From positions 1 through 59,712 of IMG/VR virus record IMGVR_UViG_3300036806_000195: 59,712 nt of DNA; one strand, 5' to 3'. The stretch's first letter is position 1; each line of letters opens with the position of its first letter. Below, one piece after another: positions 8,406-50,995 of the stretch. A program made the translations under genes and the position numbers. Under the pieces are notes generated by a model. It was not told the DNA's origin, ran no database searches, and saw nothing but the letters and a program-made list of their open reading frames with translations. Source of the DNA: a virus (taxonomy: Duplodnaviria; Caudoviricetes).

Positions 8406-9973
8406 CATCAGTGTTGCAAGACCTAGTAGATAGCCGCAAAATAGCGAATGAAGTGCGTGAACGAGCTCGGGAGTCATTCAATGCTTTTATTCGTCTTGCA
8501 TGGGATGTTGTTGAGCCTGGTGTGCCTCTGCTATGGAATTGGCATATTGATGCAATTGCAGAGCATCTAGAGGCAGTATATAGCGGTGAGATTAATCGAT
8601 TTATCTGTAATATAGCACCTGGCCATGCAAAGTCAACGATCTTCAGTGTGATGTTTCCCTGCTGGATGTGGATCAAGAATCCTACCACGAGATGGCTTTG
8701 TGCCTCTCACAGCCTAGATTTAGCTATTCGGGATAGTCGCAATTGTCGTAATCTTATTGAGTCGGAATGGTTTCAAATGTGCTTTGGAGATATCTTTCAG
8801 CTCTCTGGAGACCAGAATGTAAAAAGCTTCTTTGAAAATAATCACCGTGGCTATCGAATGGCTCTCTCAGTTGGATCAAAGAGCGGAACAGGGAAGCGGG
8901 GCACACATCTGCTTATAGATGATCCAAATAACGCGGAAGCAGGTGAATCCGACATTGAAAAAACCATCAGGTGGTTTGGCAATACATGGATGAGTCGCAT
9001 CAATTCGTACGAAACAGGGGCCATGATAGTTGTTGGGCAGAGGGTAGGTGAAAAAGATCTTACAGGTCATATTCTTGAGCTTGGCGGTTGGGAACATCTT
9101 TGTTTGCCTGAAGAATTTGAGCCTGACCGTAAAAGTTTTACCTGTATCGTGTCCAACTCAAATAGTCCATATGCATGGAAAGGGTGTGACCCTCGCAAGG
9201 AAGAGGGTGAAGTGCTCTGGACTAATAAGTTCCCTAAAGAAATTCTCGATAACCTTAAGAAGTCAGTTGGAAGTTTCACGTATGCATCTCAGTTCCAGCA
9301 ACGCCCTGCACCCGCTGGAGGAGGACATTTCAAACAAGGCTGGTTTAGGTATTTCACCGAAGAGCGTGAGTACTATCAGCTAGAAACGTCTGAAGGCCTG
9401 AAGCGGATACTCAAGACATCCTGCTGGCTCTTTATGACTGAAGACCTAGCAATCTCGCAAAAAACCACAGCAGATTACACGGTCTTTTGCATTTGGGCCG
9501 TGACTCCTGAGAAAGACCTGTTACTCATAGCTCGACTGCGTGCACGCCTAGATAACCCCGAACAACAAAAGCAGACAGAACTATTCTATTATCGGTACCT
9601 CCCTGAATACATAAAAATAGAGTCAATAGCCTATCAATTGGCATTAGTGCAGCAATTGCGTTCACGTGGACTTCCAATCAAGCGATACAATCCAATCAAG
9701 GACAAAGTATCACGTGCTACCACAGCAGCCGTCTATTATGAGGCAGGTAAGGTATTCCATCCTAAACGTGCGAGTTGGCTTGTTGAGTGGGAAGATGAGC
9801 TTCTAGCTTTCCCGTTCGGAGCGCACGACGATCAAGTAGATAATGCGTCAATGGCATGTGATGAGATGGCTAGACCAAGAGGGGGTGGTATAGTTATCGA
9901 TACTGAGCCGGCAAAACAACACCAACAAGAACAACAGCAGTATGAAGAGGAGGATGAATTAGCATGGCGATAA
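8402..9973 (+). CDS. terL: Terminase large subunit
   Basis: NIAPGHAKST Walker A, LLIDDP Walker B, YASQFQQRP, C-terminal FPFGAHDDQVD nuclease motif. Confidence 0.95.
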   Translation: MTSVLQDLVDSRKIANEVRERARESFNAFIRLAWDVVEPGVPLLWNWHIDAIAEHLEAVYSGEINRFICNIAPGHAKSTIFSVMFPCWMWIKNPTTRWLCASHSLDLAIRDSRNCRNLIESEWFQMCFGDIFQLSGDQNVKSFFENNHRGYRMALSVGSKSGTGKRGTHLLIDDPNNAEAGESDIEKTIRWFGNTWMSRINSYETGAMIVVGQRVGEKDLTGHILELGGWEHLCLPEEFEPDRKSFTCIVSNSNSPYAWKGCDPRKEEGEVLWTNKFPKEILDNLKKSVGSFTYASQFQQRPAPAGGGHFKQGWFRYFTEEREYYQLETSEGLKRILKTSCWLFMTEDLAISQKTTADYTVFCIWAVTPEKDLLLIARLRARLDNPEQQKQTELFYYRYLPEYIKIESIAYQLALVQQLRSRGLPIKRYNPIKDKVSRATTAAVYYEAGKVFHPKRASWLVEWEDELLAFPFGAHDDQVDNASMACDEMARPRGGGIVIDTEPAKQHQQEQQQYEEEDELAWR

Positions 9974-12042
9974 GCTTCCCCAACTGGCTACGCATCCCTA
10001 AACGCCGTTCCCGTATAACAGAACGCCCATTCCAAGCACCTGCCTATCCCCCTAACTCTCATACCTCAGAGATGTATGAGCGTAATGTGGGACTCATCAA
10101 CTTTGAAGAGGCAACCAAGAGGAGTGCAAAAGCCCCTGTTTCCAGAGGGCCTAAAAACCTCTCTATGGCATGGGATGATACTTCTTTCGGGCTTGTGCGT
10201 GAGGGCTCTCAGGATGATAGGCAGAAGAAAGAGACCTGCTACTTGGTCTATTGCGGCAACCAGTGGGTTTCAGGGTGCGTAGATACGACTGCTGAGCGCA
10301 TGATATCTGGTGGCTGGGAGACTGTTGAGGTAGAACGAGGCAAGGGTAGTTCTAAAAATCAAGCAAGAGTAAAACAGCTATTTGACTTTGAGGATATAGA
10401 AGAGGATTTCTTACAGTTTTTCAACTCAATTGCAACGGATTTGCTTATATTTGGCGAAGCCTTTGCTGAGATGACATACGGCCCTGACGGCTTGGTAGCG
10501 AACCTCTACACAGTAGACTCTATAACTATGACGACACACTTTGATATGCATGGTGTCATCACAGGGTATACGCAACGCTTAGAGAAGAGTACTGAGGTTG
10601 TAAGATTTGAGCCGCGTGAGATTATCAGATGGTGGCTGCCAGATCCTAAATCGAAAAAGAAAGCGCTCTCTCCCATTGAAAAGCTGAAAGACCCAGTATT
10701 TTTAGATCGATCAATGGTGACGTGGGGTGAAAAGTTCTTTCGCCAAGGCGGGAAACCAAGTTACTGGGTAGGCATGGGGCCAGACTCCAATGAGGTTGAC
10801 GCAAGTAGATATATCAAGTGGTACAAAGAGAATTATACTGGCATGGAGAATGCACATATCCCTCCTGTGATGTATGGTGGGAGTGAGATACACGAATATG
10901 GTAAAGGTTCTATTGAGCTTGATTTTGATAAGAGCCAGGATAACCAGCGTGATAGAGCTTTGGTTGTTTATGGTGTTCCTCCAGCTATGTTGGGTATTAT
11001 CGAGAGTGGGAACATTGGAGGTGGAACGGGAGAATCTCAAAACAAGTCATTTATCTATAATAAGGTCATCCCATTAGAAAACCGTATTCTTGAGAAGCTG
11101 AATTATAGAGCAGTGAAACAAGGACTATTTATTGAGGACTGGAAAGTAAAGACGCGTCATGCGGATTATCGCGATGATAAGGATATTGCGGAAATTGAGA
11201 ACAAAGAGATCGGCAATGGGACGCTCACAAGAAATGAGGCACGCCAAGAACGAGGCCGTACAGAGGTACCAGGTGGCGACGTGCCAACTATCACTACTGG
11301 CAATGCCATCACTCCTGTAGCTCGCTTACAGACAATGGAGCAAGAGCAGACGCAGCATGCTCAACTCTCATTGCAAGGCGCTCAGCAGGCTATGCAGAAG
11401 CTTGCTCAGGGTGACCAGGATAACTCAGACAATCAAGACCAGCCTCCGGAGGATAAGCAACCTCAGCAGAAGGACAAGAATGCCAAGGCAAAAGAGGCTC
11501 TCTATCGCCAATGGCTAAGAGAAGATCTGATCGAAGCGAATAATACTGGGGTCATGGTAGCCTTCTTTTTGAAGCCTAGCGAGGCTCAAGCGCTGGTCTT
11601 AGACACTGGTGAGCCTATAGACGAGCTGCATTGCACGTTGGCATTCCTGGGGGACAAGAGTCAGCTAGGGGATACTGAGGCGCTCAAGAGAGCAGTGCAA
11701 ACCTATGCTGAGAATGCTTTTACTCTGCAAGGGTGCGTATCTGGCATAGGCCGCTTTACGTCAGTACCCGATGGTGAGCCTACTCCTGTCTATGCTTCGG
11801 TAGATGCTCCCGGGCTGCCTGAGTGGCGTCAAGATCTAGTGAAGACCTTGCAAGATGCTGGTTTCCCTCCTGATACCGCACACGGCTATACACCTCATAT
11901 AACCCTCTCGTATATCCCTGTTAGTGATCCTATGCCAATAGAGAGTGTTCCTGCTATTGATCTGAGCTTTGATCTGCTCTGGCTGGCAATTGGTGATGAG
12001 CGATATGCATATGCATTAGAGAGGGAAGAAGATAATGGCTAG
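9964..12042 (+). CDS. Portal protein with C-terminal 2H phosphoesterase domain
   Basis: DLLIFGEAF, VYGVPPAMLG, LTRNEARQERG portal motifs; Q/D-rich linker; LHCTLAF and PHITLSY HxT motifs. Confidence 0.88.
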   Translation: MAISFPNWLRIPKRRSRITERPFQAPAYPPNSHTSEMYERNVGLINFEEATKRSAKAPVSRGPKNLSMAWDDTSFGLVREGSQDDRQKKETCYLVYCGNQWVSGCVDTTAERMISGGWETVEVERGKGSSKNQARVKQLFDFEDIEEDFLQFFNSIATDLLIFGEAFAEMTYGPDGLVANLYTVDSITMTTHFDMHGVITGYTQRLEKSTEVVRFEPREIIRWWLPDPKSKKKALSPIEKLKDPVFLDRSMVTWGEKFFRQGGKPSYWVGMGPDSNEVDASRYIKWYKENYTGMENAHIPPVMYGGSEIHEYGKGSIELDFDKSQDNQRDRALVVYGVPPAMLGIIESGNIGGGTGESQNKSFIYNKVIPLENRILEKLNYRAVKQGLFIEDWKVKTRHADYRDDKDIAEIENKEIGNGTLTRNEARQERGRTEVPGGDVPTITTGNAITPVARLQTMEQEQTQHAQLSLQGAQQAMQKLAQGDQDNSDNQDQPPEDKQPQQKDKNAKAKEALYRQWLREDLIEANNTGVMVAFFLKPSEAQALVLDTGEPIDELHCTLAFLGDKSQLGDTEALKRAVQTYAENAFTLQGCVSGIGRFTSVPDGEPTPVYASVDAPGLPEWRQDLVKTLQDAGFPPDTAHGYTPHITLSYIPVSDPMPIESVPAIDLSFDLLWLAIGDERYAYALEREEDNG

Positions 12043-12580: not shown

Positions 12581-12669
12581 GGTTGCCTGTAGCTCAGTTG
12601 GTAGAGCGGCGTCGATATGCTTGACAGAGGACGCTCTGTCGTGGGTTCGAGTCCCACCAGGCAACCCCA
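12581..12669 (+). ncRNA. tRNA-like RNA with extended acceptor stem, CCA end and 16-nt anticodon loop
   Basis: ggttgcctg/caggcaacc+CCA, canonical D-arm gctc-agttggta-gagc, T-arm gtggg-ttcgagt-cccac; TGCTATACT promoter at 12563. Confidence 0.7.
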
Positions 12670-37692: not shown

Positions 37693-38229
37693 ATGGACAG
37701 GTGTTCTAGAAGGATCTATAGCGTGAAATGCCTAGTGTACAAGATTTGCAATAGTGTCAATGATAAGCTCTATATCGGGATTACAAATAACAGTCTCGAC
37801 TACAGATGGGAGCAACATAGGCATACAGCAGGTAGCAGACGTTCTCATACTTCACTTTATGTGGCAATGAAAGAATATGGTAGAGATCAATTCTGGATTG
37901 AGCAGATTGAGGAGAGAGATGGGACCAATGCAGAGATGTTTGGGAGAGAGCAGTACTGGATAAGGCTCTTAAACACAGCAGTCCCGTATGGCTACAATGA
38001 GCATGTACACAAGCTTTCAGACACAGATATCGCTATTATTCGCTACAATTCTTATAGAATGAAGTGTAGGGAGTACGCTGAGTTATTCGGTGTGCAGCTA
38101 TCTATGGTACTTGTGATCAGATCTAAGAAGGAGTATTTGAGGTCACATAAACATGTAACAGAAAAAGATCTCCCTTCAGATCTAGAAGCATATGCAAAAG
38201 CTATGGGCCATGCGCAGACAAGCGGGTGA
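37693..38229 (+). CDS. GIY-YIG endonuclease with C-terminal HTH
   Basis: VYKICN...YIGIT...RWEQH...EQYWI...GYN; start uncertain. Confidence 0.8.
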   Translation: MDRCSRRIYSVKCLVYKICNSVNDKLYIGITNNSLDYRWEQHRHTAGSRRSHTSLYVAMKEYGRDQFWIEQIEERDGTNAEMFGREQYWIRLLNTAVPYGYNEHVHKLSDTDIAIIRYNSYRMKCREYAELFGVQLSMVLVIRSKKEYLRSHKHVTEKDLPSDLEAYAKAMGHAQTSG

Positions 38230-39638: not shown

Positions 39639-39905
39639 GTGAAAAGTTTTAGTGAAATTGAAGAGCTGAAATCTCAATGGGAGTCAGATCCTTGTTGGGA
39701 CATTGAGGATACTGAAGGGTTTGAGGACCATGAAGAGGAACTGAAGTTTCATCGCAAGCAGAAAGAGGTTGAATGGCACCTGCAGGCAATGCAAGAAGTA
39801 AAGGACAAGGCTGCTGAGCTTGGTTGTCCTGATAATTTGGAGCTTGCAAGATATGTCATGGCTCTTGAGGCTCGTATTGAGAAGTTGGAAGGAAAGAGCG
39901 AGTGA
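39639..39905 (+). CDS. hypothetical protein
   Basis: LKSQWESDPCWDIEDTEGFE motif; coupled. Confidence 0.65.
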   Translation: MKSFSEIEELKSQWESDPCWDIEDTEGFEDHEEELKFHRKQKEVEWHLQAMQEVKDKAAELGCPDNLELARYVMALEARIEKLEGKSE

Positions 39906-40408
39906 ATGACGCCCTGGGCCGAATCGAGAAGCTCGAAGAAGAGGTACGTAAGCTCAAAGAGCAGCACACTGAGCCCGTCAAGACAGTTCAGAGGCCTGGG
40001 ATTGAGAGCACGCTTGAGAACCATACAGAGCTGCTGAAAGAGATCTCTACCAAGCAGGATGAGCAAGAGCAGCAACTCACGCTTATCTATACTGACGTGG
40101 GTCATATGAAAGCTGATGGAGGAGTGCTCAAACAGCAGGGGCTAGAGACAAGAGCTGACATCACTGCGATAAAGGCTACTCAGAGTGATCATGGTGAATT
40201 GTTGCAAGAGATGCAAAAGACAATCTCTGAGAGCGCTGCAAAGGTGAAAGAGACGCTTGAGGCGTATGATACTCGGCTCGACATTCGAGATGAGAAGTTC
40301 GATAAAGTCGAGCGCAGTCAGAGACAGCAGTCAGAGCAACTCAACAAGCAAGGTGAGATGTTGCAAGAGCTTCTCGACTGGGTGCGAAAGCAGAAAGGAG
40401 AGGAATGA
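39902..40408 (+). CDS. coiled-coil hypothetical protein
   Basis: heptad repeats; similar style to 38447-38734. Confidence 0.65.
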   Translation: MNDALGRIEKLEEEVRKLKEQHTEPVKTVQRPGIESTLENHTELLKEISTKQDEQEQQLTLIYTDVGHMKADGGVLKQQGLETRADITAIKATQSDHGELLQEMQKTISESAAKVKETLEAYDTRLDIRDEKFDKVERSQRQQSEQLNKQGEMLQELLDWVRKQKGEE

Positions 40409-40593
40409 GCAGATTTCACAAACTTATAGTAGAAGACACGATAGAGGCTGAAACTGCACAAGAGTTATCTGACAAAATGGATGACCGCGTTCGGGCTGAG
40501 GGACTTAACCCTGATGATTTTGATTGCAAAAGTTACTGGTGTGATAGATGCAATTGTTATCATCACGTTAGTATCTATCCGTGTAGTGAGTAA
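40405..40593 (+). CDS. hypothetical protein
   Basis: coupled ORF, Cys/His C-terminus. Confidence 0.5.
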   Translation: MSRFHKLIVEDTIEAETAQELSDKMDDRVRAEGLNPDDFDCKSYWCDRCNCYHHVSIYPCSE

Positions 40594-40736
40594 CTGAAGC
40601 GCCCTCTCCTGAAGGCCGGGCAAGCTGATCAGGAGAGGGCTAATCCCATAAGCAAGCTATGGGCCTGGTTTTATAGTAGCAGATACCTGCAACTGATATC
40701 CGGCCCGTCGAACATCGAGAAAGGCCGGATTTTATT

Positions 40737-40940
40737 ATGTCTAGAGATGAATTGAGCTTAGAGGAGAAGGTAGTCATGAAACCAATAAAGGTTATGCAGA
40801 TTGCTCTTACAGTACTGATGGCTTTTATGACTGTTCTGCTCTTAATAGAGCATCAATCATATGGTTATGCAATGGCCGCACTTACGCTTATAGGTTTTAT
40901 GTCAATTTTTGCCAGATATCCAAGTAGAGGGGGGAGATAG
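40737..40940 (+). CDS. small 2-TM membrane protein
   Basis: two hydrophobic helices; first gene of putative transfer operon. Confidence 0.6.
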   Translation: MSRDELSLEEKVVMKPIKVMQIALTVLMAFMTVLLLIEHQSYGYAMAALTLIGFMSIFARYPSRGGR

Positions 40941-40946
40941 TCAGAC

Positions 40947-41447
40947 ATGGGAAAAGAATCGCCACTTGTGCATTTTTGGCATACATTCTGGGCCGGGGTA
41001 TTCTTCCTACTCATATCCTCATACAGCATTGGAAGCACTGAGAGTTGGATAAACGGTGGGGATGCGCAGAACGTGCGACCGTCTTTTAGCGTATTCTGGC
41101 AGCCATATGATTTGTGGAATGGCGTTTATGCAGGACGGGCTGCTATAGCGGTACTTATCGCCTTTTTCTCCTGGTTCTGCTGGACGGGAATCGCCTTTTA
41201 CTTTGAGGCGTACAAGATGCATTTGAACGCAATGCACAAAGGAGCAGGCGGCACATTCATCACTATCACTTGGATATTGGTTGCAGTTGACTCCTATGCC
41301 AATTGGGTAAGTGTTTCGACATGGAATATCGCATGGTACTGGCAAATTGTCATTTCTGTGGCTCTGGGCATGGGACTCATGTACTTGGGTCATTTTGCAA
41401 TTACTCATTTTCTTAAAGGCTTGAACGGAATGAAAGGAGGGAATTAA
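40947..41447 (+). CDS. 4-TM membrane protein (spread/transfer accessory candidate)
   Basis: four hydrophobic segments; immediately upstream of the ATPase. Confidence 0.7.
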   Translation: MGKESPLVHFWHTFWAGVFFLLISSYSIGSTESWINGGDAQNVRPSFSVFWQPYDLWNGVYAGRAAIAVLIAFFSWFCWTGIAFYFEAYKMHLNAMHKGAGGTFITITWILVAVDSYANWVSVSTWNIAWYWQIVISVALGMGLMYLGHFAITHFLKGLNGMKGGN

Positions 41448-41449
41448 TC

Positions 41450-42880
41450 ATGGAAGATAACGGAGAGAAGCTGAAACCGAAAGTCGAGTTGACACCCAAT
41501 GCAAAGGGGGCGCTAGCAACGGGTGGCGGAATTGTTGCGTTCGATGTCTTGACCCATGCCGGTCCAACTGGTCTTCTTCTGGCTGGTATTGGCACATGGA
41601 TCATGGCCCGCCACACGTCAGATTTTATCTATCAGAAGGATAGATTGCTTGCGCATTTTGTGCGGTCACATGCTACAGAAAACGAGCATGTGACACTTGA
41701 GCAAGACCATAGCTTTGCTGATCGTTTGCTTGGTCGTCACCAGAATGTGGATCGTGGCAATGAGAGCCATGCATCTGATGAGCGCAGCCTTGGGGATCGC
41801 CTACTTGGAAGATCTCCTAATCTCAAGAAGAATGTCACCCAGCCGAGAGCACAAGAACAAGTCCCGAATGGAACTATTCTCATTGGCACCGACACAAGGG
41901 AGAGAAGTGTCTATCGGTCATGGGCACAACTTAAAAGCGTGCTTATTCTAGGGCTGGCTGGTCTTGGAAAGTCGAGTACAGCATCCTGGTTGGTAGCGCA
42001 AGCGATCAGGGACGGCGCATCTATTGTCCTCATTGACAAGCATGGCCGCTCTGATGAGTCTCTCACTGCAATGCTTGCTCCATTCGAGAGCTTCTTTGTG
42101 CGTCCGCCTGCATACCGGCCTGATGATGCTTTCAAGAACGCTCAATTCGTGAGCCAAGAGCTTGAAAGCAGGATAGAAGGCGATACATCGTGTGATGCAC
42201 CTCTCGTATTGGTGATTGACGAGTTTTCGGACATTATGCGACAAATCAAGCAAGGGGGCCAGTGGAAAGAGACAGGTCAGGAACTGGCATCACTCATTGA
42301 GGAGATTAATACCCAGGGTCGCAAGTACAACGTCTTTGTGATCGCAATTGGTCAAATCACGAATGCGTCGCGCAGCGGAGGGACTGAGATTAGGGACTTG
42401 TTTAACACGCGGATGCTGCATGCAATGCGAGAAACTCAGGCACAGATGGTACTACCTGAGTATAAACAGCAGGTGGCACGGCTTGAAAAAGGCCAGATCT
42501 TTCTCGACATGGAAGGCAGGGACGAGCCATTCATGGTCCAGGTTCCGCTTCTCTCGGCCAAAGAGATGAAAGCTATCGCCTCACAGTGCCAAACTCGACT
42601 GAAGGAGCAATTGGATGAGGACGATTTTGAGGAGGGCAGAGGCTATGACGATGAAGGTATGGACCCATTGCCGATGAAGCCACCAGTAGTGAAATATGAG
42701 CCTGCTAAGAGGCCAGCTATCGTACTTGCTAGCAAGTACGATAGAGCAATACAGGCATGGAACGATGGAAGCAAGTCAATTAGAAGACTTGCCGAGACGA
42801 TGGAATTAAACTTTAATCAGGCAAGAGATCTGATTAACGATATGCACAACAAAGGATTTATTAACAAGTATGAAAGGTGA
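41450..42880 (+). CDS. FtsK/HerA-superfamily (TraB-like) membrane-anchored ATPase with C-terminal winged helix
   Basis: N-terminal hydrophobic hairpin, GLAGLGKSS Walker A, LIDKH, LVIDEF Walker B, QGRKYNV, IGQ, C-terminal SIRRLAETMELNFNQARDLI. Confidence 0.8.
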   Translation: MEDNGEKLKPKVELTPNAKGALATGGGIVAFDVLTHAGPTGLLLAGIGTWIMARHTSDFIYQKDRLLAHFVRSHATENEHVTLEQDHSFADRLLGRHQNVDRGNESHASDERSLGDRLLGRSPNLKKNVTQPRAQEQVPNGTILIGTDTRERSVYRSWAQLKSVLILGLAGLGKSSTASWLVAQAIRDGASIVLIDKHGRSDESLTAMLAPFESFFVRPPAYRPDDAFKNAQFVSQELESRIEGDTSCDAPLVLVIDEFSDIMRQIKQGGQWKETGQELASLIEEINTQGRKYNVFVIAIGQITNASRSGGTEIRDLFNTRMLHAMRETQAQMVLPEYKQQVARLEKGQIFLDMEGRDEPFMVQVPLLSAKEMKAIASQCQTRLKEQLDEDDFEEGRGYDDEGMDPLPMKPPVVKYEPAKRPAIVLASKYDRAIQAWNDGSKSIRRLAETMELNFNQARDLINDMHNKGFINKYER

Positions 42881-42886
42881 TTATCG

Positions 42887-42967
42887 GTCTGTGTGACTGT
42901 GTGTGTGAAGGATAATTAAGCTCAAAAATCCGAGTTTGCGTCCGCACACACACACAGTCACACAGAC
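42887..42967. repeat. 21-bp perfect inverted repeat of GT-rich units
   Basis: gtctgtgtgactgtgtgtgtg (42887-42907) / cacacacacagtcacacagac (42947-42967). Confidence 0.9.
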
Positions 42968-42987
42968 GCCCGTAGGAGGAAAAGAGT

Positions 42988-44205
42988 ATGAACTATACCG
43001 GATGGCATAGACTTAGGGACTCAAGCTGGGTAACAATCGCGTGGGAATGGCTGCAAAGTCTGTTAGGTCGAGCAGTCGACTTCGTGCTATGGGTCACAAT
43101 GATATTTGCGTGCTACCAGTTGATACCGGGCGCTCCGGTCCCCGCAACTAGTATCAGCGTCTTTATGTTTGTGCTGCAATTCGTAGCACTCGACATAGGC
43201 GGCATGGGGCTCAGGCAACTAGCACAAAGGCATGGGTTGGAAAAGGGTGCCTATACTTATAAAATAGCGAATGCGTGTATTGCTGTTACCTTTGCTACTC
43301 TCATCTTTGCAGGTTTGCAGCACGCCACAACTATTAATCCTGAGCTTACCACGTGGGTTGAGGTTATCCTGGTCATTGCCAGGTCTGGGCTAACGGTTCT
43401 CTATGGCCAAGCAATTCGGGCTCTCAAATTCGTTGAACAGACGGAAGATAACGAGATAGCAGCGCTGCAAGAAGAGATGTCCAATCTTCGTCTTCACGTG
43501 TCCAATGAACAGCAAAGGGTGTCCAGTTTGCAGACGCAATTGGACAGTGAGAAGAAAAAAGTGTCCAGTGTCCAATCAGAACTCGAGAGACGGGTATCCG
43601 ATTTGGTGTCCAGTGGACAGGCAGGGGTGTCCAGTGTCCAACTAGAATTGGACAGAGCAACGACAGAGGTGTCCAGTCTACGCATTCAACTGGACGGGAA
43701 AGAGCAGCAAATTACCAGCCTTCAAGAGGCACTCGGAAGCGGTATGAAACTGCATGAGAATAGCACTCAGCAGATTGTCTCCAGTGTTCAGAGACAGCTA
43801 GATAAAGCTCTTACTGATGTATCGAGCCTTCAAGAGCAGGTGTCCAGTGGACAGCAAGAAATAGTGAATTTGCGCGGCCAATTGGACAGCGAGCGCATGA
43901 AGGTGTCCAGTCTGCAAGATCAACTGGACAGTCAGAGGGTGTCCACTACTCCTCAAAAAGTGTCCAGTTTCGTGTCCAGTGGACAGTCAGAGGGTGTCCA
44001 ATTGGACACTGAGGAAAAGGAGCAAGATATCTCAGAAAGCACCATTGAAGAGCAGATACGCGCTATTCTTGTAGAAGAGCCTGGACTATCGGGTAGAGCT
44101 ATAGCTGCAAGGGTTGGATGTTCACCAACAACAGCGTCTACTTGGAAGAAGGCTATTGAGCAAGAGCTATCCATAGTACCGCATTTACATGTCGTTAATG
44201 AATGA
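42988..44205 (+). CDS. 4-TM + coiled-coil + C-terminal HTH protein (SpdB2/DUF2637-like architecture)
   Basis: four TM helices, ~180-aa coiled coil with VSS/QLD repeats, LSGRAIAARVGCSPTTASTWK. Confidence 0.75.
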   Translation: MNYTGWHRLRDSSWVTIAWEWLQSLLGRAVDFVLWVTMIFACYQLIPGAPVPATSISVFMFVLQFVALDIGGMGLRQLAQRHGLEKGAYTYKIANACIAVTFATLIFAGLQHATTINPELTTWVEVILVIARSGLTVLYGQAIRALKFVEQTEDNEIAALQEEMSNLRLHVSNEQQRVSSLQTQLDSEKKKVSSVQSELERRVSDLVSSGQAGVSSVQLELDRATTEVSSLRIQLDGKEQQITSLQEALGSGMKLHENSTQQIVSSVQRQLDKALTDVSSLQEQVSSGQQEIVNLRGQLDSERMKVSSLQDQLDSQRVSTTPQKVSSFVSSGQSEGVQLDTEEKEQDISESTIEEQIRAILVEEPGLSGRAIAARVGCSPTTASTWKKAIEQELSIVPHLHVVNE

Positions 44206-44351
44206 TATAATTTAGCAAGCACACGGTCCGATTCGCACTCGGGCCTCTCACCAGTAACACCTCTCGTCAGCCTGACTTCCTCTCGTGAGGTGCGCAGTGA
44301 GAATAGCAATAGAGATAAGAGGTAGTAGAACATATGTACTGAAAGGAGAGT

Positions 44352-44606
44352 TTGATGGAAGACTTAGGACTAAAAGAGTATGAGGCATGCTTAAGTTGCC
44401 AGTCACCATCAGATCTGAAGTGCCGATTATGCCAATGCTGGTTCTGTTGGCAGTGTGTTGAACACTATCAGTTTATGAGCATATTTGGAGCATTGCATGA
44501 ATATACGCGGTACCCAAGAATAGGGTACATATGCAAGGACTGCAAGAGGAATGTAGAAATGCACAGGAATATGCTAGCGGGTGTGATGAGTGAAGAGGAG
44601 GTATGA
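44352..44606 (+). CDS. Cys-rich zinc-finger hypothetical protein
   Basis: four CxxC motifs; AAGGAG RBS. Confidence 0.6.
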   Translation: MMEDLGLKEYEACLSCQSPSDLKCRLCQCWFCWQCVEHYQFMSIFGALHEYTRYPRIGYICKDCKRNVEMHRNMLAGVMSEEEV

Positions 44607-45040
44607 GCTGGATGAAAATCTACCCTATCGGCTATAGCACACCAGGGGCTCGCGAGCGCGTTGCCGAACTACTACAAGACCCTAAAATCTTGCTCATCGA
44701 CACGAGAATTAGCCCCTGGTCTTGGGATGATCAATGGAAAGGTGAGGCACTCAAGGCTCGCTATGGCAAGAAATATCGCTATGCTGGCAAGTATTTGGGT
44801 AACCTCGGCTACAAGAGCGGGTACATCCGGATAGCGGATATTGAGACAGGCATAGACGGGATCATGATGTATCTGTATGAGGGATATGAGCTTATCTTGC
44901 TCTGTCAATGCAAAAAATTCGATAAGTGCCATGTAAGCAGCATTGTAGATGAGTTGCTGTGTAGGTATATAGTTGAGGTGGAACATTTTGGGGAAGATAT
45001 CCAGTGGACGCAACTCTATAACAAGAAAGAGGAAGCCTAG
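44603..45040 (+). CDS. DUF488-family protein
   Basis: IYPIGYS, LIDTRISPWS, LGN, LLC...CH. Confidence 0.75.
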   Translation: MSWMKIYPIGYSTPGARERVAELLQDPKILLIDTRISPWSWDDQWKGEALKARYGKKYRYAGKYLGNLGYKSGYIRIADIETGIDGIMMYLYEGYELILLCQCKKFDKCHVSSIVDELLCRYIVEVEHFGEDIQWTQLYNKKEEA

Positions 45041-48736: not shown

Positions 48737-49486
48737 ATGCCACACTCATATGGTTGCTTGCCGGATCAGCCAGACCAGCGAGACCACAAGTACTCCGCGT
48801 CCTGGGAGCACCTAAACAACCTTCCACAAAGCGTTGACTTGCGCTCAGGATTGCCACCAGTAGAAGACCAGCTCGAACTTGGGAGCTGCACGAGCTTTGC
48901 AGCAGGCGCGGCTATCAGGTACGCACGCAAGAAACAAGGGCTGGCGGACTTCGTGACCTCTCACTTGTTTCTGTACTTCTGCTCGCGATTAAGGACTCAG
49001 AAGTACCTTGACACTGGTGCGACGCTCAGGGATACCATCAAAGCGGCTGCGCGGATGGGAGATTGCCCTGAGGCGGATTGGCCTTACGATATCTCAAAAT
49101 TTGCAAGCAAGCCACCCCAAGGCGCATACTTAAACGCCCTGCATGATCGAGCCATTAGCTACCAGAGAGTCACACGGTCCATCGCAGAGATGAAAGGCTG
49201 CTTAGCTTCTGGTTTACCGTTCCTGGCTGGTATAAGCGTCTACGAGTCATTTGAGAGCGATGAGGCGGCAAAGACAGGGATGATACCAATGCCTGGGAGA
49301 GATGAGCAGCTTCTAGGCGGACATGCGATTTTGATATGTGGATACCACGATGAAGATCAAAAGTGGCTTTTTCGCAATAGCTGGAGTTCTAGTTGGGCAG
49401 AAGAAGGATACGGGTTCCTGGATTACTCATATTTGCTCAATAAGGGGCTGGCGTCTGATTTTTGGGTTGTCAAAACTGTAGGCTAA
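48737..49486 (+). CDS. Papain-family (C1A) cysteine peptidase
   Basis: DQLELGSCTSFA (Q/C), GGHAILICGY (H), RNSWSSSW (N). Confidence 0.92.
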   Translation: MPHSYGCLPDQPDQRDHKYSASWEHLNNLPQSVDLRSGLPPVEDQLELGSCTSFAAGAAIRYARKKQGLADFVTSHLFLYFCSRLRTQKYLDTGATLRDTIKAAARMGDCPEADWPYDISKFASKPPQGAYLNALHDRAISYQRVTRSIAEMKGCLASGLPFLAGISVYESFESDEAAKTGMIPMPGRDEQLLGGHAILICGYHDEDQKWLFRNSWSSSWAEEGYGFLDYSYLLNKGLASDFWVVKTVG

Positions 49487-50197: not shown

Positions 50198-50995
50198 TCA
50201 CACTCTCCAATACTTTCTCGTCTCTAGCGACGGCTCTTCACTACTCCTCACAAGTCCGGCGTGCTGTAGCTGCGAGATAGCCGTGTAGGCCTTATTGAGG
50301 CGTGCTTGCCCTTGTGGCACTGAATGGTGCGCATGGAGCAATGACTCGACCTCTGCAAGCGTGTAGCCCTCTCTCTGCGATAGCATCGTGAGCACAGTAT
50401 CCGCCAGCTCATTCGACTTATTCAGCACAGCCACCACGTTCAGATCCAAGCCCTCAGTATTCCTCTCGAACTTGATATCCATCAGGCAAGACGGCGCTCC
50501 ATGTGTCATGCACTCGCGCTCAGCTATCACGGCATGCTCTCCAAAGTGCGTAGCTGCTCCTTCGACCATGCCGCGCATCAGAGGACAGAGCAGCCGGTGA
50601 TGGTCATATCTCAGTAAGAGCCTGCTATAGTCATCTGAGTAGGCACCAAATGGAAAGAGCGGCGTCTGGGCACGTGAGCCATTCATCTGCATGAGAAGAT
50701 CTCGGGCGGATTTTGCCCTCTCCAGGAGATATGCGCAATGCTGATCTATCCATTTGTTGTTGAGGAAATATTGACCGTACTCGCGCAGTAGCACAGGTGC
50801 AAAGATACCCGTGGCCACAGACACGCCTCGAACACCCTGGATGAAGAGCTCATCATTGTAGATGCGCGATGCTACGACCCACTTCGCCTCTATTCCCTCT
50901 AGCTCCTCTATCTTCTGCCTGTAAATGTCCCTCACACTACTTCCATACTTCTCTTCAAGATATTTCTCCCACATCGCTAAAATCAAACCATGCAT
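50198..50995 (-). CDS. H-NOX (HNOB)/V4R-like sensor domain fused to winged helix
   Basis: MHGLI...YLEEKYG, YND, LLREYGQYF, YxxxR, LCPLMRGMVEGAATHF, ECMTHGAPSC; AAGGAGG RBS. Confidence 0.8.
   Translation of the reverse strand: MHGLILAMWEKYLEEKYGSSVRDIYRQKIEELEGIEAKWVVASRIYNDELFIQGVRGVSVATGIFAPVLLREYGQYFLNNKWIDQHCAYLLERAKSARDLLMQMNGSRAQTPLFPFGAYSDDYSRLLLRYDHHRLLCPLMRGMVEGAATHFGEHAVIAERECMTHGAPSCLMDIKFERNTEGLDLNVVAVLNKSNELADTVLTMLSQREGYTLAEVESLLHAHHSVPQGQARLNKAYTAISQLQHAGLVRSSEEPSLETRKYWRV

Follow-up and report, generated by a model that had tools for sequence, protein, structure and literature searches.

The window analysed here is the whole 59,712-bp IMG/VR virus record IMGVR_UViG_3300036806_000195, which carries direct terminal repeats and is complete or near-complete. 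Four open reading frames (ORFs) on its + strand, between 40737 and 44205, form a module that encodes, in order, a small protein with two transmembrane (TM) segments, a second membrane protein with about four, an FtsK-type P-loop ATPase and, after an inverted repeat, a protein with four TM segments, a coiled coil and a C-terminal helix-turn-helix (HTH) (Table 1). The first three genes are separated by only 6 and 2 nt. A sequence-only reading of this DNA had singled out these five features as a Streptomyces-type transfer module of a phage-plasmid, and all five were found where it had placed them. The module recurs in two other tailed-phage records, G001 (holding locus L002) and G002 (holding L004). 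It probably encodes a membrane-bound translocase of double-stranded DNA (dsDNA) with a site in cis, as judged from domains, gene order and repeats.

Table 1. Positions of the module, of its parts and of other features discussed in the text (aa, amino acids).
Feature	Position	Strand	Basis
Small membrane protein, 67 aa	40737-40940	+	Strong segment aa 19-37 (mean Kyte-Doolittle hydropathy, KD, 2.52), weaker aa 41-59 (1.45)
Membrane protein, 166 aa, ~4 TM	40947-41447	+	Two strong and two weaker hydrophobic segments
FtsK-type P-loop ATPase, 476 aa	41450-42880	+	Family profiles, alignment, model; start 2 nt past preceding stop
C-terminal DNA-binding domain of the ATPase, FtsK-gamma-like HTH (predicted)	42722..42877	+	Pfam scan of the domain alone
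Hairpin/inverted repeat, 21-bp perfect arms	42887-42907 + 42947-42967	+	Repeat scan, 100% complementary
4-TM/coiled-coil/HTH protein, 405 aa	42988-44205	+	Hydropathy, Pfam, homologue alignment
Word array: 14 direct GTGTCCA (9 of them GTGTCCAGT), 8 inverted TGGACA	43498..44009	+	Word counts
Coiled-coil protein, 168 aa, adjoining the module upstream	39902..40408	+	L004 homologue at the same position, 30% over 128 aa, E 9.7e-9
12-nt perfect inverted repeat upstream of the module	40601..40640	.	Repeat scan
Tyrosine integrase	4256-5284		Gene identification
Small terminase subunit (TerS)	7746-8405		Gene identification
Large terminase subunit (TerL)	8402-9973		Gene identification
Tape measure, 936 aa	22286-25096		Gene identification

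At its N-terminal end the ATPase has a hydrophobic hairpin (aa 16-70). A disordered linker leads to the motor (aa ~135-390), and an HTH of three helices (aa 427-467) lies at the C-terminal end. The Walker A and B residues of the ATPase (G168, G173, K174, D257 and E258) show no variation across alignments of 20 and of 91 relatives. The profile phrog_1358, annotated 'FtsK/SpoIIIE-like', matches aa 138-473 at 1.4e-13. In Pfam the full-length protein gives generic P-loop matches and FtsK_gamma at E 0.081; DUF87, the central domain of HerA, is the sole family above its own cut-off, covers aa 162-199 and is matched by 34 of the 91 family members scanned. An AlphaFold model built on 20 relatives reached a pLDDT of 72.5 (84-95 over most of the motor, 66-71 in two blocks). 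Foldseek comparison of this model with PDB placed the FtsK motor first (4.8e-11, TM-score 0.52 by target), followed by the pCW3 coupling protein TcpA (1.7e-10), EccC (6.4e-9), SIR2/HerA (4.7e-8), HerA (1.1e-6) and VirB4 (3.8e-6). A profile of the 91 family sequences likewise ranked FtsK first among PDB sequences (2.8e-11 and 2.2e-7), with DUF87/HerA at 4.6e-6 to 3.6e-5 (HerA 9.2e-6), VirB4 at 8e-4, TrwB at 0.023 and TcpA at 0.04. Among the FtsK-HerA P-loop ATPases, model and profile both place the window ATPase in the FtsK branch rather than in that of HerA. Its FtsK-like character, proposed from the sequence, is thereby upheld, and the grouping with HerA-type ATPases that had been named as speaking against it was not observed, HerA ranking under FtsK in both comparisons. 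A narrower profile, A1, run against PDB sequences returned PPR matches, which were discarded as spurious.

At the N-terminus the model has helices at aa 16-35 and 38-70 (pLDDT 63-73). Membrane anchoring, which the earlier reading had taken as given, is plausible for the window protein on this model and is clear only in the plasmid relatives. The last 60 residues fold in the model into three helices (427-438, 444-450 and 455-467, pLDDT 86-89). When this domain was scanned alone, the best Pfam match was FtsK_gamma (E 0.0024, 18 bits, below the 30.6-bit cut-off) and the next four were all winged-helix families, while PDB sequences gave nothing meaningful. Of the winged helix said to end the protein, the three-helix HTH is thus recovered, and its wing is suggested by these matches.

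The ends of the ATPase are better conserved in some relatives than its centre. The L004 ATPase is 72% identical to that of the window over aa 1-96 only, and the relative P0016 is 72% identical over aa 1-101 and 74% over the last 58 aa of the window ATPase; in both the centre is unalignable. The hairpin at the N-terminus goes together with the 2-TM and 4-TM proteins, and the types of C-terminal HTH are shuffled among relatives. The ATPase therefore looks like a set of three exchangeable parts, in which anchor and DNA-binding end are kept and the motor is swapped, and this fits the predicted device of a membrane anchor, an ATPase and a DNA reader. As a separate observation, in P0016, P0018, P0020 and L004:5749-7197 the motor of ~320 aa is replaced by an unalignable P-loop domain (GIRRSGKT ... 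FLDEAQ ... LTQR); the P0016 variant had no match among PDB sequences.

The three partner proteins are poorly covered by existing families. The 67-aa and 166-aa proteins had no match in Pfam, PHROGs and PADLOC-type scans. The former is 57% identical over 56 aa to its L004 homologue and the latter 85% identical to its own, with just 4 homologues in a search of 5.8 billion proteins. The gene for the 405-aa protein is preceded by an AGGAGG ribosome-binding site (42975-42980), and at least 80 homologues of the protein were found. Its hydrophobic segments lie at aa 24-42, 56-74, 93-111 and 120-138, family scans gave matches of coiled-coil type, and the C-terminus matches HTH_23 with 27.0 bits (cut-off 24.6). 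An alignment of 12 homologues shows strong conservation in the 4-TM N-terminus and in the HTH at the C-terminus (…EPGLSGRAIAARxGCSPTTASxWKK…); between these two lies a coiled coil in which the unit 'EVSxLRxQLD' recurs. The TM domain of this family is not covered by any Pfam family; DUF2637 (PF10935), a lead from the protein atlas (score 0.76), was matched by none of four records at E <= 1 and was absent from Pfam scans of the N-terminal domain. In a related gene on the 2.5-kb fragment L012, three tandem 24-nt repeats (protein ETVPPA...) were noted at L012:1832-1895.

The readable contexts of the module and its ATPase are three phage contexts and two plasmid types. All three module-bearing phage records have a tape-measure gene, but their terminases are unrelated, and the module thus appears to be shared by three unrelated tailed phages. 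The order of 4-TM gene, ATPase gene, hairpin and TM/coiled-coil/HTH gene is the same in all three; the 2-TM gene is present in the window and L004 only. L002, a sequence also found as L003 and L005-L007, has genes for a 4-TM protein of 195 aa, for an ATPase whose motor is 49% identical, and for a multi-TM/coiled-coil/HTH protein of 507 aa, and L004 follows its 2-TM, 4-TM and ATPase genes with one for a 429-aa TM/coiled-coil/HTH protein. On L012 an ATPase gene is followed by one for a 341-aa protein of the same architecture. A metagenome scan yielded 8 loci, 3 of them from the same phage as L002, and no relative was found in 50,697 phage records by tblastn and blastn (tblastn with the window ATPase). 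The sequence-only reading had suggested looking for the cassette in other phages and plasmids. On phages it is present in the two further records; on small plasmids the ATPase was found, but not its partners. L006 and L007 are one metagenome contig of 195,973 nt in which the L002-type module occurs twice, 97,867 nt apart. This contig is probably a concatemeric assembly of a circular genome of ~98 kb, in which case the 75.5-kb IMG/VR record would be a fragment.

The ATPase family itself appears to be large and effectively undescribed, and to extend outside the actinomycete hosts of known single-ATPase transfer. A word-indexed search found 20 relatives, all metagenomic, and an exhaustive profile search found 2037 cluster representatives (50% clustering) at E <= 0.001, 997 at <= 1e-10 and 215 at <= 1e-30. 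The contigs of the relatives have a G+C content of 48-56%. In the literature, supplements aside, we found no description of the family or of the module.

Members of this family occur on what appear to be minimal rolling-circle plasmids. Four small contigs form two pairs, L008/L011 and L009/L010, with the same ORFs in permuted order, and three of the four have terminal overlaps of 127 nt, from which we take them to be circular, with units of 4263 nt (L008/L011) and 4470 nt (L009/L010, once the overlap is removed) and a G+C content of 52-53%. They contain essentially a rolling-circle Rep of the Rep_1 type (34.0 bits in L009, cut-off 33.2; 32.0 bits in L011, just under), a small HTH ORF and an ATPase of this family. 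The small protein of L009 is a 69-aa Xre-type HTH protein (25.7 bits, cut-off 23), and L008 has a 65-aa ORF instead. Among plasmids, 163 relatives of the Rep were found; most are labelled 'protein rep' and sit on plasmids of 2-8 kb from many phyla, and 32 of them are Streptomyces records. The plasmid ATPases (566-577 aa) are 45% identical to that of the window in the motor and have an N-terminus with 2-3 TM segments and a fused coiled coil. About 40% of the sequence of these plasmids is thus devoted to a membrane FtsK-like ATPase, in parallel to the small conjugative Streptomyces plasmids that need only Tra and clt. We regard these plasmids as the best single argument that the family may move its own replicon in a TraB-like manner.

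In the comparison with 72,556 plasmid records the window ATPase had one weak match (24% identity, E 2e-4), to an 821-aa FtsK-like protein encoded beside a 'conjugal transfer protein' on a Streptomyces plasmid. The two proteins were related with an hhalign probability of 93%, a value obtained for this match and not for a named TraB. The plasmid-borne L009 ATPase had no match in the same records. Small repeat clusters were seen on both plasmid types: GTTCACGGGTG occurs twice in tandem with an inverted copy in the 3' part of the L009 ATPase gene (L009:3583-3651), and AATTGGGTAACAC occurs three times with an inverted copy upstream of the L008 ATPase gene (L008:1368-1406 and 1574-1582). They could be clt-like sites or Rep sites.

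Two candidate cis elements were found in the module. One is the hairpin, which begins 7 nt past the ATPase stop codon and has a folding energy of -54.1 kcal/mol (z -8.6; none of 200 shuffles was as stable). The corresponding hairpins of L004 and L002 have -28.4 kcal/mol (z -5.9) and -19.3 kcal/mol (z -2.1). In all three phage loci the hairpin stands at the same position and carries TTAAGCTCA at its apex (window 42916-42924), although the stems are unrelated in sequence, and TTAAGCTCA occurs exactly once in each of the three phage sequences (59.7, 20.7 and 16.0 kb). It was not found in L008, L009, L011, L012 or L013, and among the 118 loci listed in a pattern scan of viral contigs for the loop, all of unrelated DNA, none encodes a module protein. 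As a terminator the hairpin was rejected, for it was not called as one and has no T tail. It is a candidate cis element that, unlike the word array, is conserved with the module.

The other candidate is the array of GTGTCCA words in the gene for the 405-aa protein. On the + strand of the window GTGTCCA occurs 18 times, 14 of them within 43498-44000 and 4 elsewhere in 58.5 kb, that is, 11.5 against 0.07 per kb. With 14 GTGTCCA and one TGGACAC inside the gene, the words have one main direction. The 8-bp form GTGTCCAG occurs 11 times in the window (1.66 expected; 0 of 100 shuffles reach 11), and 9 of the 11 lie in this gene, which agrees with its earlier description as filled with 8-bp repeats. 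Built from the word are three 13-bp TGTCCAGTGGACA palindromes and a perfect 16-bp palindrome, GTGTCCAATTGGACAC, at 43994-44009; the array also contains three TGTCCA-N15-TGGACA pairs.

The protein repeat alone does not account for these words. In 5000 trials of synonymous resampling with the protein fixed and codons drawn from 18 phage genes, GTGTCCA occurred 0.30 times on average and at most 4 times, against 14 observed, and GTGTCCAGT was expected 0.06 times against 9 observed. TCC is the rarest Ser codon in the 18 phage genes (9%), yet it is used by 13 of 14 V-S dipeptides; 11 of these 14 are GTG TCC, and TCC AGT encodes 10 of 12 S-S dipeptides. In the same repeat units the codons for Leu and Gln vary freely. 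GTGTCCA is read in two frames, 11 times as V-S-x and 3 times as S-V-Q or G-V-Q (AGT GTC CAA, GGT GTC CAA). When the 14 V-S sites are aligned, exactly nine positions, third codon positions included, carry 1.05-2.0 bits, and the immediate flanks less than 0.6 bits. The recurrence of V-S and L-D thus explains part of the array, but not the choice of codons, and we conclude from this codon evidence that the words appear to be maintained at the DNA level.

As to what reads the words, winged HTH type and downstream-protein type appear to combine freely among relatives: L004 has another winged HTH and another downstream family, and P0020 and P0169, each of which is listed with a 3284-nt contig, give a hint of the same. 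This free combination hints that the reader may be the invariant HTH of the 405-aa protein itself rather than the ATPase.

The genes of the window indicate a temperate siphovirus-type phage. Besides those in Table 1 it encodes portal, protease, major head protein, amidase endolysin, a sigma factor, a Sak4-like ATPase and a ParB-like domain fused to a DNA methyltransferase; a primase-helicase gene spans the window ends. With TerL present, packaging is accounted for without the module ATPase, as the sequence-only reading had pointed out. The module sits in an accessory region with lysis genes on one side and replication genes on the other. The G+C content is 47% overall and 43-50% along the window. 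TerL is at most 36.5% identical to that of the nearest named phages, too distant to point to a host. Chloroflexota and Cyanobacteriota are suggested as hosts by protein atlas leads only; HIP1 words, typical of many cyanobacteria, are absent from the window and five loci, a result too uninformative to exclude a cyanobacterial host.

Four soil-metagenome runs contain the stretch, of which two may be its source, and no RNA sequencing run containing it is listed. A circular contig of 59,615 nt in run X2 matches the window identically over the 3.6 kb compared, and two further soil runs hold low-depth pieces identical to it. All pieces from X2-X4 are identical to the window, and these runs therefore offer no population variation for testing constraint on the GTGTCCA words; X1 contributed a single 37-nt piece with 7 differences. 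The X2 contig is cut precisely at the 3' arm of the hairpin (window 42959-42988), a cut that the inverted repeat most likely caused during assembly.

Upstream of the module, the 12-nt inverted repeat is likely to mark the operon boundary. It is followed by a terminator-like site (40645-40663), of a kind not above chance in that scan, and promoter and terminator calls in 40300-44700 did not exceed those in shuffles. The 168-aa coiled-coil protein, which has only weak Pfam matches (XhlA, E 0.015), may also belong to the module. In both the window (37693-38229, +) and L002 (6580-7059, -), a gene for a GIY-YIG homing endonuclease is found a few kb upstream of the module genes. Downstream, a DUF488-like protein of 145 aa (44603-45040, +; PF04343, 9.7e-5) also has a weak match to the candidate-defence family PDC-M45B (8e-5). 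Elsewhere in the window we noted a 265-aa protein with an H-NOX (haem-NO-binding, PF07700, 1.8e-12) and a V4R-like part (50198-50995, -), which is unusual in a phage; a papain-family cysteine protease (48737-49486, +; PF00112, 3.4e-14) amid early and replication genes; a portal gene (9964-12042, +) whose product is extended at the C-terminus by a part (aa 521-689) matching PHROGs with the annotation RNA ligase or head maturation protease; and an 88-nt tRNA-His of odd length and anticodon (12582-12669, +; anticodon ATG by ARAGORN, Rfam tRNA 45.8 bits).

We favour, tentatively and at somewhat less than an even chance, the reading that the four genes form an operon for a membrane-embedded, sequence-directed dsDNA translocase that moves the phage genome. 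The ATPase would form a hexameric membrane pore, which the small membrane proteins would hold. A cis site close by, on the phage genome in its circular (excised or replicating) form, would be recognised by one of the two HTH domains, and the motor would pump the double-stranded genome over a membrane or septum into an adjoining cell or compartment. Recognition and pumping are proposed in view of the FtsK-type motor, its gamma-like HTH, its membrane partners and the candidate cis sites. The phage could thus spread as naked DNA besides virions, as TraB and Spd proteins do for Streptomyces plasmids and integrative and conjugative elements of actinomycetes (AICEs). That transfer from cell to cell or compartment to compartment is the purpose of the module is possible, at odds a shade lower still; transfer between hyphae, as supposed in the sequence-only reading, is conjectural. 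The carrier had been called a phage-plasmid, a term against which the tyrosine integrase and the fusion of the ParB-like domain to a methyltransferase speak; an AICE-like integrated element that also makes virions is, on its gene content, the better picture.

Several results weigh against the transfer reading. With an integrase and complete sets of virion and lysis genes, the phage has no evident need for a second route of spread. The window ATPase is not matched by the Pfam family FtsK_SpoIIIE (PF01580) at E <= 0.1, a family that at E <= 0.001 recognises only 4 of the 91 members scanned. Its N-terminus is moderately hydrophobic and Gly-rich, with a maximum KD of just 1.34 (aa 27-45). The 405-aa and 166-aa proteins had no tblastn match at E <= 0.1 in the 72,556 PLSDB plasmids, a search in which the low-complexity filter may mask the coiled coil, and two pattern scans of the GTDB species-representative genomes found no relative. 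The resemblance of the 405-aa protein to the Streptomyces protein SpdB2, discussed below, is one of architecture. The 'VSxL..QLD' repeat is kept at the protein level in homologues down to 43% identity, so that the repetitive coiled coil itself accounts for some of the DNA repeat. An array comparable to that of the window was found in neither of the two other phage loci (L002, L004) and in none of three other contexts (L008, L009, L012), which carry small repeat clusters near or inside the ATPase or partner gene instead; among the 118 loci listed in a viral-contig pattern scan for the heptamer array none encodes a module protein, and the DNA is unrelated. Finally, TraB-type transfer, with dsDNA moved by one FtsK-like pump and no relaxase or pilus, is described in the available parts of PMC3583192 and PMC12857230 for mycelial actinomycetes only, and the G+C content of this phage is 47%.

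The points on the array would fit a different origin, in which it is a by-product of recent in-frame duplications in the coiled-coil gene and has no cis function, the true site lying elsewhere, for example in the hairpin. Word spacings that are multiples of 3, and often of 21, agree with such duplications, as do the conserved protein repeat, the lack of arrays at the other module-bearing loci and the apparently free combination of winged HTH and downstream-protein types. Duplication, though, does not readily explain why synonymous sites stayed fixed inside the 9-mer while adjacent Leu and Gln codons, and even amino acids, diverged, why the rarest Ser codon serves 13 of 14 V-S dipeptides, why the word also appears in a second frame, or why it makes up a perfect 16-bp and three 13-bp palindromes. 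We therefore consider this origin rather unlikely.

Other functions can be proposed for the motor. SpoIIIE and FtsK clear chromosomes through septa, and so does Streptomyces SffA, which is targeted by the small membrane protein SmeA. A segregation device of this kind, pumping or clearing the phage or plasmid genome through closing septa into daughter compartments or spores, would agree with a motor closest to FtsK itself, a C-terminal domain closest to FtsK_gamma, a small membrane protein gene adjoining the ATPase gene and the membrane tethering of DNA that a TM/coiled-coil/HTH protein would provide. It is nevertheless improbable, since inheritance is already assured by the integrase, high-copy rolling-circle plasmids of 4.3-4.5 kb rarely need active segregation, and no ParA was found among the window proteins scanned. 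We hold still less likely a role in superinfection exclusion or defence, in which a prophage membrane ATPase expels or blocks incoming DNA or triggers abortive infection in the manner of HerA-type systems. The weak PADLOC matches (mad8 at 1.8e-10 over aa 250-329; HerA at ~1e-3 over aa 164-200, the Walker A region only) could be read in this way, together with DUF87 as the sole Pfam family above cut-off, though over a short segment, and the accessory position of the module; but FtsK precedes HerA by fold and profile, no nuclease, Sir2 or other effector partner was found among the module neighbours, a defence gene would be an unusual chief cargo for a 4.3-kb plasmid, and cis repeats on the element's own DNA suit self-recognition better than recognition of foreign DNA. 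Least probable, and by our estimate very much so, is a helper at the infection stage, whose motor would pull the rest of the genome inward in a two-step entry or arrange for replication or packaging to proceed at the membrane. Such a task would suit a dsDNA motor in the membrane that has a DNA reader, an array running essentially in one direction and a place among early-type genes; against it, the same ATPase family is found on plasmids, which never inject DNA, the motor would have to exist before the DNA that it pulls in, and TerL and TerS already serve packaging.

Carrying the transfer reading further, we consider it possible, but doubtful, that a soil lineage outside the high-G+C actinomycetes has its own single-ATPase dsDNA conjugation. 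Its minimal form would be the 4.3-4.5 kb Rep and ATPase plasmid, captured together with membrane partners by temperate phages, which could then pass as naked DNA between connected cells besides forming virions, with the recognition words written into the partner gene so that the coiled-coil repeat would be shaped by a DNA-binding-site array. That this lineage is mycelial Chloroflexota is no more than a guess, based on G+C content, habitat and leads from the atlas. For more than 10 years FtsK-like genes have been on record from actinomycete phages and left unexplained (PMC3706429). An ATPase family with partners and candidate cis sites makes virion-independent spread of phage genomes testable, and the same material bears on the question whether conjugation by a single ATPase extends further than assumed. 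For experiments on such a pump, the minimal plasmids would offer the simplest starting point. If the array does consist of binding sites inside a gene, it would be a clear case of a DNA-level constraint shaping a protein repeat.

The module can be compared with several known systems. To the TraB/TraA proteins of Streptomyces (pSVH1, pIJ101, pJV1, pWTY27), as far as the available parts of the sources describe them, it is similar in having an FtsK-like motor. Their N-terminal membrane segments, two TM helices in TraA of pWTY27, have a plausible counterpart in the N-terminal hairpin of the window ATPase. Both ATPases end in an HTH, which in TraB is winged and reads short repeats and in the module is predicted. 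Repeats are present beside the gene in both, the candidates here being the hairpin and the 14 GTGTCCA words 0.6-1.1 kb downstream, and both kinds of ATPase occur on small rolling-circle plasmids, which in Streptomyces need little else for transfer. A relaxase and a type IV secretion system (T4SS) are lacking in both, in the window as judged from the relaxase and VirB4 families named below. In the parts of PMC3583192 available, clt loci of Streptomyces consist of short repeats, direct and/or inverted, that lie within or next to the tra gene, and according to the same source and PMC12857230, as far as available, small conjugative Streptomyces plasmids require just Tra and clt. The window ATPase differs in its length (476 aa vs 688-772 aa) and is only remotely related, by the single plasmid match described above; its carrier is a temperate tailed soil phage with 47% G+C, vs a high-G+C actinomycete plasmid or AICE. 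With membrane proteins unmatched in plasmids and DUF2637 absent as well, the label 'Streptomyces-type' given to the module in the sequence-only reading is not supported.

SpdB2, described in the available parts of PMC4447253 as a dsDNA-binding protein of ~409 aa with four TM helices and a coiled coil, encoded beside traB, resembles the 405-aa protein in size (~400 aa), in being integral to the membrane with four TM segments, in having a coiled coil and in being encoded beside a translocase. In that source, so far as available, its coiled coil lies at aa 1-99, whereas in the 405-aa protein the order is TM, coiled coil, then an HTH that looks specific. The earlier comparison with Spd proteins thus stands for the architecture and gene neighbourhood, but not for sequence, in which no similarity to any plasmid protein was found, or for domain order. 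SpdB2 has been proposed to aid septal crossing, and putative Spd homologues have been reported in the actinophages phiC31 and VWB.

FtsK and SpoIIIE recognise short oriented words (KOPS and SRS). They are the best structural and profile match of the motor and share with the window ATPase a gamma-like C-terminal HTH and membrane anchoring, the latter plausible here. The window ATPase differs in being much shorter, in not reaching PF01580, in showing neither an FtsK alpha domain nor a 4TM domain in the Pfam scan, and in being encoded by a mobile element with dedicated membrane partners. FtsK-like proteins with a divergent gamma-like end are known from Cluster J mycobacteriophages (PMC3706429), and FtsK-like proteins from Gordonia phages Bowser and Schwabeltier (PMC4982277), in both cases with no role assigned. 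The Cluster J proteins have no membrane domain and are ~60% identical to the host FtsK, whereas the window family is far from cellular FtsK and has a membrane hairpin and partners.

TcpA of pCW3, the second-best fold match, is a hexameric DNA-exporting ATPase of the FtsK/HerA superfamily, but acts with a relaxase and a T4SS-like apparatus. Neither was found here: as the sequence-only reading had noted, relaxase and VirB4 genes were not seen, and PF03432, PF03389 (relaxases) and PF03135 (VirB4), the families covered by our search, had no match in the window at E <= 0.1. TdtA of the Thermus element ICEth1 is a membrane-bound hexamer on an integrative element (PMC5365140), but it is HerA-like and has a NurA nuclease partner, of which no counterpart was found here. 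The Streptomyces plasmid-phage pZL12 had no sequence relation to the window ATPase in the plasmid search and differs from the window phage, which has an integrase, in being an actinomycete plasmid-prophage with ParAB. It combines a lytic cycle with tra-dependent transfer, as cited in the available parts of PMC3583192 and PMC4487206, and with this dual lifestyle as an example a phage with conjugal transfer would not be unprecedented.

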